Of a DNA stretch of 64,000 nucleotides, positions 1,383 to 7,532 are shown in pieces. The notes beneath the pieces were generated by a model. That model saw only the letters and a list, made by a program, of their open reading frames with translations. It made no database searches and was not told where the DNA came from. Source of the DNA: an uncultured Actinomycetes bacterium (GTDB lineage Bacteria > Actinomycetota > Thermoleophilia > UBA2241); assembly GCA_963725665.1 (NCBI GenBank), contig CAVRZA010000011.1, positions 96,001 through 160,000 of the forward strand, written 5' to 3'. Made by a program: the position numbers and the translations under genes. Positions within the stretch are counted from its first letter, which is position 1. Each line of letters opens with the position of its first letter.

Positions 1383-1577
1383 ATGATCTACTCGGTGGTT
1401 CCTCAGGAGCTCGGCGACGACGTCTACGAGCGCCTCGTCGAGCACTACAAGGACAACCCGAACGTGATGGTCATCCGGGAGCGGCGCCAAGGGGAGCGCC
1501 GCAAGGGTCCCAGCACGGGCGGCGAACGCCGGCAGCGCGACCGCCGGCGGCAGCGGCCGGGCACCTTCGATCTGTGA
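1383..1577 (+). CDS. Small hypothetical protein with ERR/DRR repeats
   Basis: GGAGGG RBS, TGcTACATT -10 upstream, typical codon usage, overlaps the next start (GTGA). Confidence 0.75.
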   Translation: MIYSVVPQELGDDVYERLVEHYKDNPNVMVIRERRQGERRKGPSTGGERRQRDRRRQRPGTFDL

Positions 1578-2062
1578 CGCCAAGCGATCCTGAGGCGCGC
1601 CGACCCGCAGATACGCGCGTCGCGCTCTCGCAACTCATGCAGCCCGCCGACGCTAACTTCATGGGCGTGATCCACGGCGGCATCGTGATGAAGCTCATCG
1701 ACGAGGCGGCCGGCACCTGCGCCTACCGCTTCGCGCGCACGCGCGTCGTCACGGCGGCCATCGACCGCATCGACTTCCACTACCCGGTGCACATCGGCAA
1801 TCTCGTCACGCTCAAGGCGACCGTGAACCACGCCGGACGCACCTCGATGGAGGTCGGTGTGCGCGTCGAGGCGGAGGACCTCGACAGCGGCCGCGTCACG
1901 CACACCAACAGCGCCTACCTGGTCTTCGTGGCCCTCGACGAGGACGGACACCCCACCCCGGTGTCGCGCCTCGTCCCCGAGACCGACGAGGAAAGGCGCC
2001 GCTGGGCCGAGGCCGAGGCGCGTCGCGACGCTCGGCAGCGGCTGCGCGAGCCGGCCGACTAG
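1574..2062 (+). CDS. Acyl-CoA thioesterase (hotdog fold, YciA-like)
   Basis: DANFMGVIHGGIVMKLIDEAA; GRTSMEVGVRV; FVALDEDGHPTPV. Confidence 0.92.
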   Translation: MTPSDPEARRPADTRVALSQLMQPADANFMGVIHGGIVMKLIDEAAGTCAYRFARTRVVTAAIDRIDFHYPVHIGNLVTLKATVNHAGRTSMEVGVRVEAEDLDSGRVTHTNSAYLVFVALDEDGHPTPVSRLVPETDEERRRWAEAEARRDARQRLREPAD

Positions 2063-2126
2063 GCCGGGCGATCGCCCGCCGCTCGGGTGGACCTTCGCCT
2101 TGCGGGCATCGTCGCCGGGACGGCCG

Positions 2127-2963
2127 TCACGCCGTCAGCGGTGCAGGCCCGACCCCGGCGGACGCCTGCGGAGCGACGCCTTCGAGACGCAGCAGCTCGG
2201 CGAGCGCCGCCTGCGCCACGTCGAGTTGCTCGGGACTCGGGTCGCGCGTCGTGAAGAGCTTCTGGACCTGGACGCCGGGCGTGCGCAGAAGGCCGGCCAG
2301 CGGGTGCCCCTGGTGGCGGGCCATCCAGGCGAAGACCTCGACGGCCGAGCCGATGCTCACCAGCCCAGCGACGAGCACCGCCAGGGGATTCTTCTCTTTG
2401 CCGAGGCGCGCGAGGACCATGTTGCCCAGCGTGCTTGTCACGAGCAGCGGGCCGACCAGGTTGGAGCCGCAGCGCGCGTGCTCCTTGCTCGCCTCGTCGG
2501 CGGCGATGCCGGCCTCGTAGCCGCCCACGCTCATGTGCTCGGCGCCGTGCATGCGCGACAACTCGGAGTCGCGGATGGCGAGCAGCGCCGGCCCCAGGGT
2601 GAGGGCGGCGACGGCCAGCTCGCGCAGGAGCGGCGAACCCTTGCCGCTCCTGCGCAAGAGCAGCGTCGCCGCCGCGCTGCCCGCCGTCGCCGCGAGCAGC
2701 CGGGGATCCTCCTGGGGGAGCACCGGGAGCCCCATCTCGCGGCGCAGACTCGGCAAGACGGCGGCGGCTTCGCCCAGGCGCATCACCCCGCGGGCGACGG
2801 GCACGTGTGCCAGCATCCTGCTCCCGGGAGGGTGGTTCCTGAGCCCCGAACGAACGCGCAGCGTCCCGTCGGGCAGGCGTACCGCCGCCGCCCAGTGACG
2901 CTCGCTCTGCAGAAGGACGCCGTCTCGCAGCGCCATGCCGCCCAGGACGAGATCAGCCTGCAT
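2127..2963 (-). CDS. DUF1385 family protein
   Basis: LGGMALRDGV, PVARG, MHGAEH, HARCGSNL and QKLFTTRDP motifs; start placed at MQADLV behind a GGAGGA RBS. Confidence 0.8.
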   Translation of the reverse strand: MQADLVLGGMALRDGVLLQSERHWAAAVRLPDGTLRVRSGLRNHPPGSRMLAHVPVARGVMRLGEAAAVLPSLRREMGLPVLPQEDPRLLAATAGSAAATLLLRRSGKGSPLLRELAVAALTLGPALLAIRDSELSRMHGAEHMSVGGYEAGIAADEASKEHARCGSNLVGPLLVTSTLGNMVLARLGKEKNPLAVLVAGLVSIGSAVEVFAWMARHQGHPLAGLLRTPGVQVQKLFTTRDPSPEQLDVAQAALAELLRLEGVAPQASAGVGPAPLTA

Positions 2964-3115
2964 GCCGTCCTCTTCTTCTTTCAACGTCTCGTCTCCTCGT
3001 GTTGACGGGCCTTCGCGCCTTGGCCCATTATGCCCGCAAAGTAGTCGATCACCGCGGCCGGCGCGCAACTCCCGCCCAGCGCTGCGGCGGACGCGCTCTG
3101 CGAAAGGGGCTCGAC

Positions 3116-3334
3116 GTGTGCAGCTTTCCCCATATCGCCGAACGGGCGCAGCACTTGAGCGCCCTCACGGCACCGCTGGCGGCCGAGGAGGCGGTCGAGC
3201 TCCTTTGCAGCGACTGCCCCTTCTACCATCCCGACCGCGAAGAGCAGCTCGAATGCGGCAGCTTTCTCATCCTCAAGCGGCTGCTCGAGCGCGGGGCGCT
3301 CACGCCGGCGCAGATCGTCGCCGCGTGCCGCTGA
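3116..3334 (+). CDS. Small Cys-containing protein (CxxCPFY...ECG), accessory gene of the radical SAM cluster
   Basis: GTG at 3116 after AAAGGGG; LCSDCPFYHPDREEQLECGSFLILKRLLERG. Confidence 0.7.
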   Translation: MCSFPHIAERAQHLSALTAPLAAEEAVELLCSDCPFYHPDREEQLECGSFLILKRLLERGALTPAQIVAACR

Positions 3335-3365
3335 CGCGCCCGGGTACCCCGCCGCGCTCAACGAC

Positions 3366-4571
3366 GTGGACTCCAGCGCGACCATCCCACCGGCGCCCGA
3401 TCCGACCGTCTACCTCTCTCCCGACGCGTCGCTGAAGCGGCTCGAGGCGCCGTACCTCTACCACCGCGGCAAGGACGACCTCTACGAGCTGACTGCAGAG
3501 GCGTTCGCGTTCATCGAGCGCCATCGCGGCCGCCTCCCCTCACGAGAGACCGAGCCGGAGTTCCTCGCGACCTGCCTCGACGAGGATCTCCTTACGTGGC
3601 GCGAGCCGTCCTCCGGGCCGGAGCTTCGGGTGGCATCGGGAGAGCGACCGTCGCTGCGCTACCTGCTGGTGCACCTCACGGGTCGCTGCAACCTGCGCTG
3701 CGCGCACTGCTACGCCTCGGAAGCTGGGGAGGACGACCTGCCCTTCGATGCCGTATGGCACGCGTTCGCGGAGTTCGAGGAGGGCGGCGGCCTGCGGCTC
3801 CTGCTCTCCGGAGGGGAACCTCTGCTCCATCCGGACTTCTCGCGCATCGACGAGTTGCTGCCCGGCCTGAACGTGCGCACCGTGCTGCTTACCAACGGCA
3901 CCCTCCTCACCTCAGCCCGCGCGCGGCGCCTGCACGTGCATGAGGTGCAGGTCAGCCTCGACGGCATGGAGGAGAGCCACGACGCGCTGCGTGGTCCCGG
4001 GTCCTTCGCCCGCGCACGACGGGGCCTCGAGGCGGCCCGCGAGGCCGGTCTGCAGATCAGCGTCGCCTCGACGGTGAACGCTCTCAACCTGCGCGACTTC
4101 GACCGTCTCGCGGCTCTCGTCGAGGCCCTCGACGTCTGGCAGTGGACGATCGATGTGCCGTGTTCGGCCGGACGCATGGCGCAGCGGCCGCGACTCGAGG
4201 CGCCACCGGCCGAAGCGGCCAAGGTCCTCGAGCGCGGCTTCGCCTCGGGCACGCACGGAGACACGTTCGACTACCTCTGCGGCGCCCACCTCGCCGCGAT
4301 CATGCCCGACGGTAGGGTCGGCAAGTGCGGGCTTCTTCCCGATGAAGGAGGCGGACGCCTCGACGACGGCCTCGCGGTCGCGTGGCGACGCATACCCCAC
4401 CGCACGACCGGCTCGCTCGGGGAGATCTGTCGCTCGTGCCGCATCCTCGAGGACTGCCACGGCGGCTGCCGCTTCAGGGCTGGAGGCGCCCAATCACTTG
4501 CACCCGACGTCATACAGTGCTATCGGTATGGAGTCCTGGAAGCAACCGGGAGGAGGTGGTGCCGTTCATGA
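3366..4571 (+). CDS. Radical SAM/SPASM peptide maturase with N-terminal RRE/PqqD-like region
   Basis: CNLRCAHC, SGGEPLL, SPASM Cys pattern (CGAH...GRVGKC...CRSC...CHGGCR...C); about 90-aa N-terminal extension. Confidence 0.88.
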   Translation: MDSSATIPPAPDPTVYLSPDASLKRLEAPYLYHRGKDDLYELTAEAFAFIERHRGRLPSRETEPEFLATCLDEDLLTWREPSSGPELRVASGERPSLRYLLVHLTGRCNLRCAHCYASEAGEDDLPFDAVWHAFAEFEEGGGLRLLLSGGEPLLHPDFSRIDELLPGLNVRTVLLTNGTLLTSARARRLHVHEVQVSLDGMEESHDALRGPGSFARARRGLEAAREAGLQISVASTVNALNLRDFDRLAALVEALDVWQWTIDVPCSAGRMAQRPRLEAPPAEAAKVLERGFASGTHGDTFDYLCGAHLAAIMPDGRVGKCGLLPDEGGGRLDDGLAVAWRRIPHRTTGSLGEICRSCRILEDCHGGCRFRAGGAQSLAPDVIQCYRYGVLEATGRRWCRS

Positions 4572-4633
4572 AGATCAAGAAGGTGGCCCGAGGAAAGGCG
4601 GCGCTGCACTGCAAGTGCAGCTCGAGCTGCTGA
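4568..4633 (+). CDS. Putative RiPP precursor peptide MKIKKVARGKAALHCKCSSSC (21 aa)
   Basis: Strong GGAGGAGGT RBS, ATGA overlap with the radical SAM stop, Lys-rich leader plus Cys/Ser core, terminator directly downstream. Confidence 0.75.
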   Translation: MKIKKVARGKAALHCKCSSSC

Positions 4634-4675
4634 ACCAGCTCTGAACGGAAGCCGCTTCCTCACAGGCGACTTTCG

Positions 4676-4715
4676 AGGGGCGGGGGTGTGCGGACAAGGC
4701 ACCCCCGCCCCTTTT
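4676..4715 (+). terminator. Rho-independent terminator closing the radical SAM-peptide operon
   Basis: AGGGGCGGGGGTG...CACCCCCGCCCCT stem followed by T-tract. Confidence 0.85.
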
Positions 4716-4898
4716 GTCTCGTGTCGAGCGCCCACTGCTGGTGTCGCTGGTTCGGCAAGGCGCCGGATTGCGAACCGCGCGCGTCTCGGCGCGGCCGGCG
4801 CGCTGCCGAGGCGTCGGCCCGCGCCGACACGCGCGCCGACGCATGAGGCGCCGAGTGGCGATAGGATGACCGCGACGATCAACGAGAAGGGGGAGACG

Positions 4899-6493: not shown

Positions 6494-6937
6494 TCACCCC
6501 CAGATCGCCCGCGCGTCCGCAAGCACGCGCGCCGCGTGTCCCTTCGCCTTGACTTTGTCGTAGACCTTGCGCACGGTGCCGTCGGCGTCGATCAAGAAGG
6601 TCGAGCGCTTCGCGCTGCCCACCAGACCGCCGACCTCGAAGGCCCGCGTGACCTCGCGATCGGGGTCACTTACGAGCGGAAAGCCCAAGCCGTACTTGCC
6701 GGCGAAGCGCTCGTTGGCGGCCGGCTTGTCGACGCTGGCTCCCACCACCTGCAAGCCCAACGCCGCGAACTCGCCCAGGAGGCCGTTGAACTCAACGGCT
6801 TCCGTCGTTCACCCCGGGGTGGAGGCCTTGGGGTAGAAGTAGAGCACCGTCGGCTTGCCGGGCGCCCCCAGGTCGATGATCGTGCCGTCGTAGGCGGCTG
6901 CCCTCACCGAAGGCGCCTTGTCCCCAGCCTGTATCAC
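6494..6937 (-). CDS. bcp: Selenocysteine-containing peroxiredoxin (Bcp/PrxQ family), copy 2; Sec at codon 43 (TGA 6809-6811)
   Basis: One frame from GTG 6937 (GGAGGAGG RBS): VLYFYPKASTPG-TGA-TTEAVEFNG...GASVD...FPLVSDPD...RSTFLID. TGA sits exactly at the peroxidatic Cys position. Confidence 0.9.
6778..6803 (-). promoter_or_regulatory. Bacterial SECIS-like hairpin
   Basis: GGAAGCCGTTG-AGTT-CAACGGCCTCC; apical loop starts 16 nt after the UGA and contains GU. Confidence 0.8.
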
Positions 6938-7058
6938 GGTCGCCTCCTCCAGACCCGCTGATCGCCCACGCGGCCGCCACCACCGCACCGGCCCGCCTCC
7001 TGATGTGAAGTCGGGGTGCGCGGCGCGCCCCGCGCCCGTCGGCACGCCAATCCTACCG

Positions 7059-7532
7059 CTAGAAGCCGGTCTCCTCGTTGGGGACCGGCCACTCCCAGAT
7101 CTCGCGCACCGTCTCGAGCACGGCCGACGCGTGACCGCCCGGGTCGACGTCGGTCCAGACGTGCTGAACGACACCCTCGCCCAGCAAGAAGGTCGTCCGT
7201 CTCGCCTTTCCCCCCGGCTCCTTCAGGACTCCGAAGACCTCGCTCAGGCGCCGCTCGGAGTCGCAGACGAGGGTCATGTTGAGGCCGTACAGCTTCGCGA
7301 AGGCGCGGTTGACCGCGGGGGTGTCCACGCTCGCGCCGATGACCGCCACGTCGAGCGCCGCGTACTGGTCGAGGAGGCCGTTGAACTCAACGGCTTCCTT
7401 CGTTCAGCCGGACGTGGAGGCCTCGGGATAGAAGAAGAGGACCGCCTTGCGGGCGAAGGAGCCGAGGTCGAGCACCCCTCCGTCGCAGGTCGAAGCCCGC
7501 ACCGCCGGGATCCTGTCACCCGCCTCGATCAC
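7059..7532 (-). CDS. bcp: Selenocysteine-containing peroxiredoxin (Bcp/PrxQ family), copy 1; Sec at codon 43 (TGA 7404-7406)
   Basis: GTG 7532 (GAGGAGG RBS): VLFFYPEASTSG-TGA-TKEAVEFNGLLDQY...GASVD...RRTTFLL, in frame with ORF 7059..7349. Confidence 0.9.
7373..7398 (-). promoter_or_regulatory. Bacterial SECIS-like hairpin (identical to the one at 6778-6803)
   Basis: Same 26-nt GGAAGCCGTTGAGTTCAACGGCCTCC at the same distance from the UGA. Confidence 0.8.

Follow-up and report, generated by a model that had tools for sequence, protein, structure and literature searches.

The subject of this study is a cassette of three co-oriented genes on the forward strand of a 64,000-nucleotide (nt) stretch of DNA from an uncultured Actinomycetes bacterium of the Thermoleophilia lineage UBA2241 (assembly GCA_963725665.1, contig CAVRZA010000011.1, positions 96,001 to 160,000; hereafter the window). 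Within about 1.5 kb (3116-4633) the cassette encodes a protein of 72 amino acids (aa) with three cysteines, here called the helper, a 401-aa radical S-adenosylmethionine (SAM) enzyme with a SPASM region and an N-terminal domain resembling the recognition element (RRE) found in systems for peptides that are made on ribosomes and modified after translation (RiPP systems), and a peptide of 21 aa. Gene coordinates were obtained by reading the sequence between 2700 and 5100 together with a listing of its open reading frames (ORFs). They bear out an initial annotation, made from the sequence alone, that had proposed such a trio and had given the peptide gene a ribosome-binding site, an ATGA overlap with the enzyme stop and the terminus CKCSSSC (Table 1). 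Systems that combine a radical SAM/SPASM enzyme with a small peptide are already known; the family described here carries neither a curated model nor a name, and our computational analysis indicates that it is a real and apparently undescribed variant of this modified-peptide theme.

The GTG at 3116 is supported as the start of the helper gene because public protein collections hold an identical 72-aa sequence, under the name 'hypothetical protein'. A consensus scan found one promoter-like site ahead of the cassette, against a mean of 0.0 in shuffled sequences. At the other end, a strong terminator had been proposed: the G+C-rich hairpin is present, and the segment 4634-4720 folds with an energy of -46.3 kcal/mol (z = -3.35), but the T run is short and a consensus terminator scanner made no call at the hairpin, whose loop has 9 nt. 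For the interval 3000-4750 no RNA datasets are listed, and the shares of DNA datasets are small (<=0.16).

Table 1. Features of the three-gene cassette, with positions counted from the first letter of the window.
Feature	Positions	Strand	Remarks
Promoter-like site TTGACG, 18 nt, CATTAT	3002-3031	+	Upstream of the cassette; consensus match only, not functional evidence
Small helical accessory protein (helper), 72 aa; C31, C34, C47	3116-3334	+	GTG start 3116, stop 3334
Predicted radical SAM/SPASM peptide maturase, 401 aa	3366-4571	+	GTG start uncertain by a few codons
N-terminal RRE-like domain, residues about 14-92	3405-3641	+	Strands 14-41; helices 44-52, 64-72
CxxxCxxC radical SAM cluster motif C108, C112, C115	3687-3710	+	CNLRCAHC at residues 108-115
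SPASM region, seven invariant Cys	4278-4520	+	C305, C321, C355, C358, C364, C368, C385
Shine-Dalgarno GGAGGAGGT of the peptide gene	4549-4557	+	Sequence reading
21-aa precursor-like peptide MKIKKVARGKAALHCKCSSSC, C-terminus CKCSSSC	4568-4633	+	ATG 4568 overlaps the enzyme TGA (ATGA)
G+C-rich hairpin, 15 bp, then TTTTGT	4675-4713	+	Likely intrinsic terminator closing the operon

The peptide gene is conserved. A scan of species-representative genomes confirmed at least 448 relatives of the enzyme, and the best 80 loci were analysed; with the window locus (L001) and L003-L005 they form a set of 84, from which L002 was excluded. When the leader was left unconstrained (pattern C.C, 2-4 residues, C, stop), an ORF adjoining the enzyme was found in 60 of 80 loci, and all 60 matches turned out to begin with x-I-K/R-K. 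A stricter pattern, extended by a C-terminal Ala variant, places a peptide ORF beside the enzyme in 65/84 loci. The usual form is a 20-aa ORF, M-x-I-[KR]-K-x8-C-K-C-x3-C-stop: the length is exactly 20 aa in 63 of 66 enzyme-adjacent peptides, the window peptide and that of its closest relative having 21 aa, a cysteine occupies the extreme C-terminus in 65 of the 66, and the spacing between leader and core is fixed at 8-9 residues. The consensus of 57 distinct peptides reads MxIKKVxKKxSxTCKCKxSC; the search pattern by itself accounts for part of the constancy at I3, K5 and the Cys positions, but not for that of the Lys between the first two cysteines, Arg having been allowed there. Across 62 distinct DNA versions the invariant I, K and C positions use synonymous codons (TGC/TGT, AAG/AAA, ATC/ATT/ATA) and the stop is TAA in 25, TGA in 21 and TAG in 16, and GGAGG-type ribosome sites precede the enzyme-adjacent peptide ORFs. 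The ORF goes beyond chance because its profile match tracks the enzyme and because the invariant residues are written in synonymous codons; the comparison thus argues that the 21-codon ORF is a real gene.

The core varies along the taxon labels of the loci: CKCKASC in those labelled deltaproteobacterial or Chloroflexota, CKCKSSC and relatives in Nitrospirota, and CKCSSSC, CKCSSCC or CKCHSSC in Actinomycetota, and the archaeal peptides, from records labelled Methanoperedens, end in ...CKCHSSC followed by a single further A, T, V or I. No adjacent copy was seen in 19/84 loci, five of which (L023, L038, L039, L071, L091) end within about 220 bp past the enzyme. A peptide-profile search recovered an unlinked copy in 12 of 14 genomes checked (G041, G042, G044-G053) and none in the other two, G002 and G043; the genomes behind L023, L038, L039, L051, L071 and L091 stood outside this check. 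A conserved short ORF accompanying homologous enzymes, for which the initial annotation had proposed to look, is therefore present, adjacent or unlinked. That annotation had also placed the peptide below normal gene-calling size, and none of six peptide sequences tested is present in a collection of 15 billion proteins; against Pfam and NCBIfam the peptide comes near no cut-off. Two other readings of the ORF were rejected: selenocysteine read-through of its stop, since all three stop codons occur, and a lipoprotein signal peptide, the sequences having, by eye, neither a hydrophobic stretch nor a lipobox. A 1354-bp contig labelled Nanoarchaeota (L082), which may be misbinned, carries the enzyme with a CKCKASC peptide, the core found in loci labelled Syntrophaceae or 'Deltaproteobacteria'. 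In the archaeal genomes G044 and G047 the unlinked peptide genes adjoin an ORF that reads as rhodanese-like (L116:1046-1465, +; L118:1589-1987, -).

Among 41 genomes of the window's family and class, the enzyme and the peptide gene are both present in four and both absent from 36; one has the enzyme without the peptide, and none has the reverse. Enzyme orthologs (E <=5e-92) are separated by a clear gap from radical SAM paralogs (E >=7e-26) in these related genomes. The peptide profile matches exactly G000, the window's own genome, with a single peptide copy, and G008, G029 and G034, all of which carry the ortholog; the enzyme-only genome, G002, is 74% complete. Within the window's own family the cassette is patchy (3/25 genomes, G000 counted). 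By record labels it occurs in Actinomycetota/Thermoleophilia, Thermodesulfobacteriota/Syntrophaceae, Chloroflexota/Dehalococcoidia, Nitrospirota/Thermodesulfovibrionales, Nitrospinota and Methanoperedenaceae. Peptide, enzyme and helper go together in anaerobes from several bacterial phyla as well as in archaea.

For the enzyme, Pfam returns PF04055 (Radical_SAM) only, with 67.7 bits against a cut-off of 29.5, and the radical SAM core begins near residue 95. The SPASM domain is defined by a seven-Cys motif with two auxiliary clusters, to which the pattern in the window was matched by eye. In an alignment of 18 sequences the three cysteines of CxxxCxxC are invariant, as are seven in the SPASM pattern (C, 15 residues, C ... 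CxxC, 5, C, 3, C ... C), so that both Cys sets read from the single sequence hold throughout the alignment. An eighth, C266, is present in 13 of the 18; by analogy with CteB, this would keep an iron site free for a thiolate of the substrate. The best 120 database matches are 42-93% identical to the enzyme over 92-100% of the query, bar one fragment, and the few that bear a name are called only 'radical SAM protein'. The initial annotation had recognised no characterised family, and none of the three genes falls within a curated one. The top NCBIfam match of the enzyme, AhbD, scores 95.6 bits against a cut-off of 500, and the other models likewise stay far below theirs: ScmE 94 vs 400, AhbC 92.6 vs 650, NirJ 86 vs 515, ACGX 81.6 vs 400, GeoRSP 81.3 vs 400, StsB 80.3 vs 625, MftC 75.7 vs 265, SbtM 67 vs 350, ScmF 62.5 vs 400 and PqqE 59 vs 381. 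Four family members from other phyla also fall far below every curated cut-off (MftC <=103.7 vs 265; heme-enzyme models <=108.1 vs 515), and members other than the window enzyme score about 60 vs 850 with AlbA, 57.2 vs 300 with SkfB, 58.9 vs 500 with CcpM and about 55 vs 600 with CefB.

The best sequence match of the enzyme in the PDB is SkfB (2.6e-22, identity about 19-21%). An AlphaFold2 (AF2) model of the enzyme, with a predicted local distance difference test (pLDDT) score of 83.6, matches SkfB (PDB 6EFN) with Z 26.0 and a root-mean-square deviation (rmsd) of 4.6 over 327 aligned residues (model residues 19-378). It is followed by SuiB (Z 24.1-24.4, rmsd 3.7-4.0, 341-351 aligned), anSME (Z 22.4, rmsd 3.2, 285 aligned) and CteB (Z 22.3, rmsd 3.3, 284 aligned), and the alignments to the last three run through the SPASM region. 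Judged by the predicted model, the nearest structural counterparts of the enzyme are SkfB and SuiB, both of them peptide maturases. In the superposition on SuiB (Z 24.1, rmsd 3.9, 351 aligned) the alignment opens at residue 14 of the model and residue 1 of the SuiB chain, so that the N-terminal recognition domain of SuiB is included. An hhalign comparison of a profile of 24 N-terminal domains with a PqqD profile, the latter built from PF05402 matches in related genomes, gave a probability of 53% and an E value of 1.3e-4 over 30 columns that span the hallmark strand-helix motif. The RRE-like character of the N-terminal extension, suggested by the initial annotation, is in this way moderately supported. 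Elsewhere in the same genome, outside the window, a stand-alone PqqD-family gene (G000:C6:564158-566067; PF05402, 58.9 bits) lies about 1.2 kb upstream of another radical SAM match; this is a second, unrelated RiPP-like locus.

With phmmer the helper was found in 61/84 loci (E<1e-3), in most of them immediately upstream of the enzyme. Its cysteines C31, C34 and C47 (CxxC, 12 residues, C) are invariant in 28 helper sequences, a triad on the strength of which the protein probably binds a metal or an Fe-S cluster. In loci labelled Nitrospirota the module is duplicated in tandem and the helper is divergently encoded, and in L047, L053, L056, L063 and L065 the tandem helper is joined to the enzyme's N-terminus, in ORFs of 500-546 aa, with the peptide gene as a separate ORF upstream. 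These fusions argue for the helper as a subunit dedicated to the maturase. When 1.84 billion representatives were searched with a profile of the helper, 266 proteins matched at E <=1e-3; the 150 matches listed have one or two modules and 47-188 aa, apart from one of 474 aa. Nine helper variants came near no family cut-off in Pfam and NCBIfam, and a protein atlas holds only 'hypothetical protein' clusters for it. An AF2 model (pLDDT 83.5) is a four-helix unit, with a best Foldseek E of 7.6 and a best Z of 4.0 among 48,161 chains in a wide search with VIA-align; the absence of a match in the PDB does not show that the fold is new. Complex prediction for enzyme and helper scored 0.00 against a mark of 0.32, which is no evidence either way.

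The surroundings of the enzyme were surveyed in the 84 loci, out to about 3 kb, for ORFs of 70 aa or more; these were clustered, four clusters were checked by Pfam and the remaining ones judged by reading. Recurrent neighbours are the enzyme itself, the helper and antisense shadow ORFs that we judged spurious. The commonest real neighbour beyond the trio is an ATP-grasp-like protein, directly downstream of the peptide gene in 17/84 loci, which could be an optional tailoring enzyme; a FAD oxidoreductase lies near the enzyme in 11 loci, and further clusters in fewer than 11 each. One example of the ATP-grasp-like protein, at a locus labelled 'Deltaproteobacteria' (L015:4410-5324), matches PF02655 with 28.5 bits and no NCBIfam family. 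Among the 15 most frequent neighbour clusters no protease or transporter was recognised, in line with what the initial annotation had noticed next to the cassette of the window.

Comparison with described systems points to SCIFF, SkfB, mycofactocin and CrpA/CrpC. SCIFF peptides are about 45 aa long with 6 Cys, and their cassette, like the present one, is compact, without a protease or exporter of its own, and widespread in anaerobes. As in our system, whose enzyme has an RRE-like domain, SCIFF/CteB (thermocellin, a ranthipeptide; PDB 5WGG/5WHY) joins an enzyme composed of RRE, radical SAM and SPASM parts with a small conserved peptide that ends in a Cys-rich segment. In contrast to SCIFF, the present peptide has 20-21 aa with 3 Cys, an extra three-Cys helper is encoded, the 25 best NCBIfam matches of the window enzyme, all far below their cut-offs, do not include the SCIFF maturase model, and the taxa differ (here Actinomycetota, Thermodesulfobacteriota, Nitrospirota, Chloroflexota and Methanoperedens). 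Mycofactocin, whose product is an intracellular cofactor, resembles the cassette in the short conserved precursor with a reactive extreme C-terminus (MftA), the SPASM enzyme (MftC) and the small helper (MftB). However, the putative recognition domain is here fused to the enzyme, the helper is Cys-bearing, helical and not PqqD-like, the core is CKCxxSC instead of a Val-Tyr end, and genes like MftD, MftE and MftF do not recur. As judged from these comparisons the system would work most like SCIFF/CteB and its layout resembles the mycofactocin trio, and it belongs to neither because every curated enzyme model tested lies far below cut-off and for peptide and helper there is no match at all.

SkfB (PDB 6EFN), the sactisynthase of the sporulation killing factor, is a Cys-directed peptide maturase that forms thioethers; its SPASM domain is partial, and at its N-terminus it carries a [2Fe-2S] domain. 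It gives the best match in the PDB by both sequence and fold, but its substrate is unrelated, identity is low as given above, and the SkfB model is listed for only one of five enzymes tested. PMC13692751 describes CrpC of Methanococcus voltae as a radical SAM enzyme of the SPASM type, with a predicted RRE, which puts ranthionine links on its Cys-rich neighbour CrpA; by that description the substrate is a Cys-rich protein and not a 20-aa peptide, which sets it apart. Our literature search returned no description of the system, with supplementary tables outside its reach, so that the enzyme cluster may be listed there as uncharacterised. In the text of PMC10288494 none of the taxon and size terms sought occurs, and core-motif strings led only to metallothionein and unrelated papers. 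The family is distinguished by its obligate three-Cys partner, which has no assigned fold and is sometimes enzyme-fused, and by archaeal peptide genes that are unlinked and sometimes duplicated.

We prefer, with a probability of about two in three for the whole of it, the interpretation that the three genes form a system complete in itself, in which a peptide made on ribosomes is modified by the enzyme. The gene trio, its conservation, its co-occurrence and the fusions are computational findings; for leader binding, chemistry, metal binding and cellular role we infer the following course. The short basic leader (M-x-I-K/R-K-V...) would be bound by the RRE-like N-terminal domain, and the fixed spacing would then present the core C-K-C-x-x-S-C at the active site, where the 5'-deoxyadenosyl radical and the two SPASM clusters would act together to modify the cysteines. 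That the peptide is the substrate of the enzyme is the part that we hold with most confidence, as very likely. In sactipeptides the sulfur of Cys is linked to the alpha-carbon of the acceptor residue, in ranthipeptides to its beta- or gamma-carbon, and the likeliest single outcome would be thioether (S-C) links within the peptide, of the sactionine or ranthionine type; we put thioether formation forward tentatively, at somewhat less than even odds. The helper may supply a metal or cluster site or hold the peptide. We would expect the product to act within the cell, a role also suspected for SCIFF, and to be a conserved peptide of the thiol/thioether or metal-binding kind and not a variable antibiotic, because no protease or exporter travels along and the whole peptide is conserved across phyla. 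The near-invariance of all 20 aa across bacterial phyla and archaea points to a physiological rather than an antibiotic role, and the conservation of the core across phyla fits the 'intracellular cofactor-like' function suggested by the initial annotation better than a bacteriocin.

Several observations weigh against this reading. The SPASM model of Pfam does not match the enzyme, and the PqqD model (PF05402) matches none of five N-terminal domains tested, and the case for an RRE is moderate. The likeness to SkfB, SuiB, CteB and anSME is that of the general SPASM fold, and the reactions of these enzymes differ. A subclade of the enzyme, L002 (G002) and L013 (G043), has no adjacent helper, and no peptide was found anywhere in either genome, G002 being 74% complete; its enzymes, 57-58% identical to that of the window, end about 20 residues early, and they may be decaying or repurposed copies. 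Details also differ between lineages, given that archaeal peptides have a residue more after the last Cys and that their genes are unlinked from the enzyme. Finally, the neighbour survey reaches about 3 kb to either side, with Pfam applied to four clusters only.

There are other explanations. The peptide could serve as precursor to a cofactor or to a molecule that binds metal, in the manner of mycofactocin or pyrroloquinoline quinone (PQQ), with a non-thioether chemistry on the Cys-Lys-Cys...Cys core, such as oxidative decarboxylation of the C-terminal Cys, heterocycle formation or the building of a metal site, and with the three-Cys protein as a chaperone of peptide or metal. A precursor so short and so nearly invariant from bacterial phyla to archaea would recall PqqA and MftA, and the lack of a recurrent protease or exporter, the genes that can be unlinked or duplicated, the Cys that ends almost every adjacent peptide and the metallothionein papers retrieved with CKC and CxCxxxC strings all agree with such a role. 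Nevertheless we consider it unlikely: the extra A, T, V or I of the archaeal versions speaks against a strict need for a free C-terminal Cys, the MftC and PqqE scores lie far under their cut-offs, and no peptidase or downstream tailoring gene recurs. It is likewise doubtful, at about the same level, that the CKCxxSC peptide, matured by the enzyme together with a metal-binding helper, serves anaerobes as a conserved cofactor within the cell or as a carrier of metal or sulfur. If this were true, the peptide would rank beside mycofactocin and PQQ as a new cofactor derived from a peptide, common to several bacterial phyla and Methanoperedens, and would have been overlooked because its 63-nt gene is below gene-calling size.

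Alternatively, the helper and not the peptide might be the substrate, crosslinked at the protein level as in CrpA/CrpC, with the peptide as a metal carrier or regulator. The helper is conserved beside the enzyme with invariant cysteines, and radical SAM crosslinking of a Cys-rich protein is reported in PMC13692751; yet the five fusions to the enzyme N-terminus, with the peptide encoded separately, look more like a subunit than a product, and the leader-plus-core layout of the peptide with its fixed spacing and its strict co-occurrence with the enzyme make this explanation quite improbable. Least credible of all, and close to dismissal, is that the enzyme belongs to the tetrapyrrole or other small-molecule radical SAM types (AhbD, AhbC, NirJ) and that the short ORF arose by chance. 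AhbD is its nominal top match in NCBIfam, but 95.6 bits are far under the cut-off of 500 and many unrelated SPASM families score alike, so that a grouping with the three heme enzymes, raised by the initial annotation, was not found; moreover, the peptide ORF is conserved with synonymous codon variation and is absent in the 36 relatives that lack the enzyme. With three genes in about 1.5 kb the cassette is compact enough for heterologous reconstitution, and the chemistry at CKCxxSC and the role of the helper are readily testable.

The flank upstream of the cassette (1574-3068) holds a 4HBT thioesterase gene (+) and a DUF1385 gene (-). A thioesterase-like ORF similarly opens L002 and L003, so the flank looks syntenic in the family; it gives no functional clue.

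Further downstream, at 6494-7174 (-) and 7059-7532 (-), lie tandem genes of Bcp/PrxQ-type peroxiredoxins with an in-frame TGA at the expected peroxidatic Cys (contexts …YPKASTPG-TGA-TTEA and …YPEASTSG-TGA-TKEA). Read as selenocysteine, the TGA makes each of them one continuous protein; they are probably selenoproteins, split in two by ordinary ORF calling. The same genome encodes SelB (G000:C11:543952-545106), with 315.2 bits against a cut-off of 242.25.

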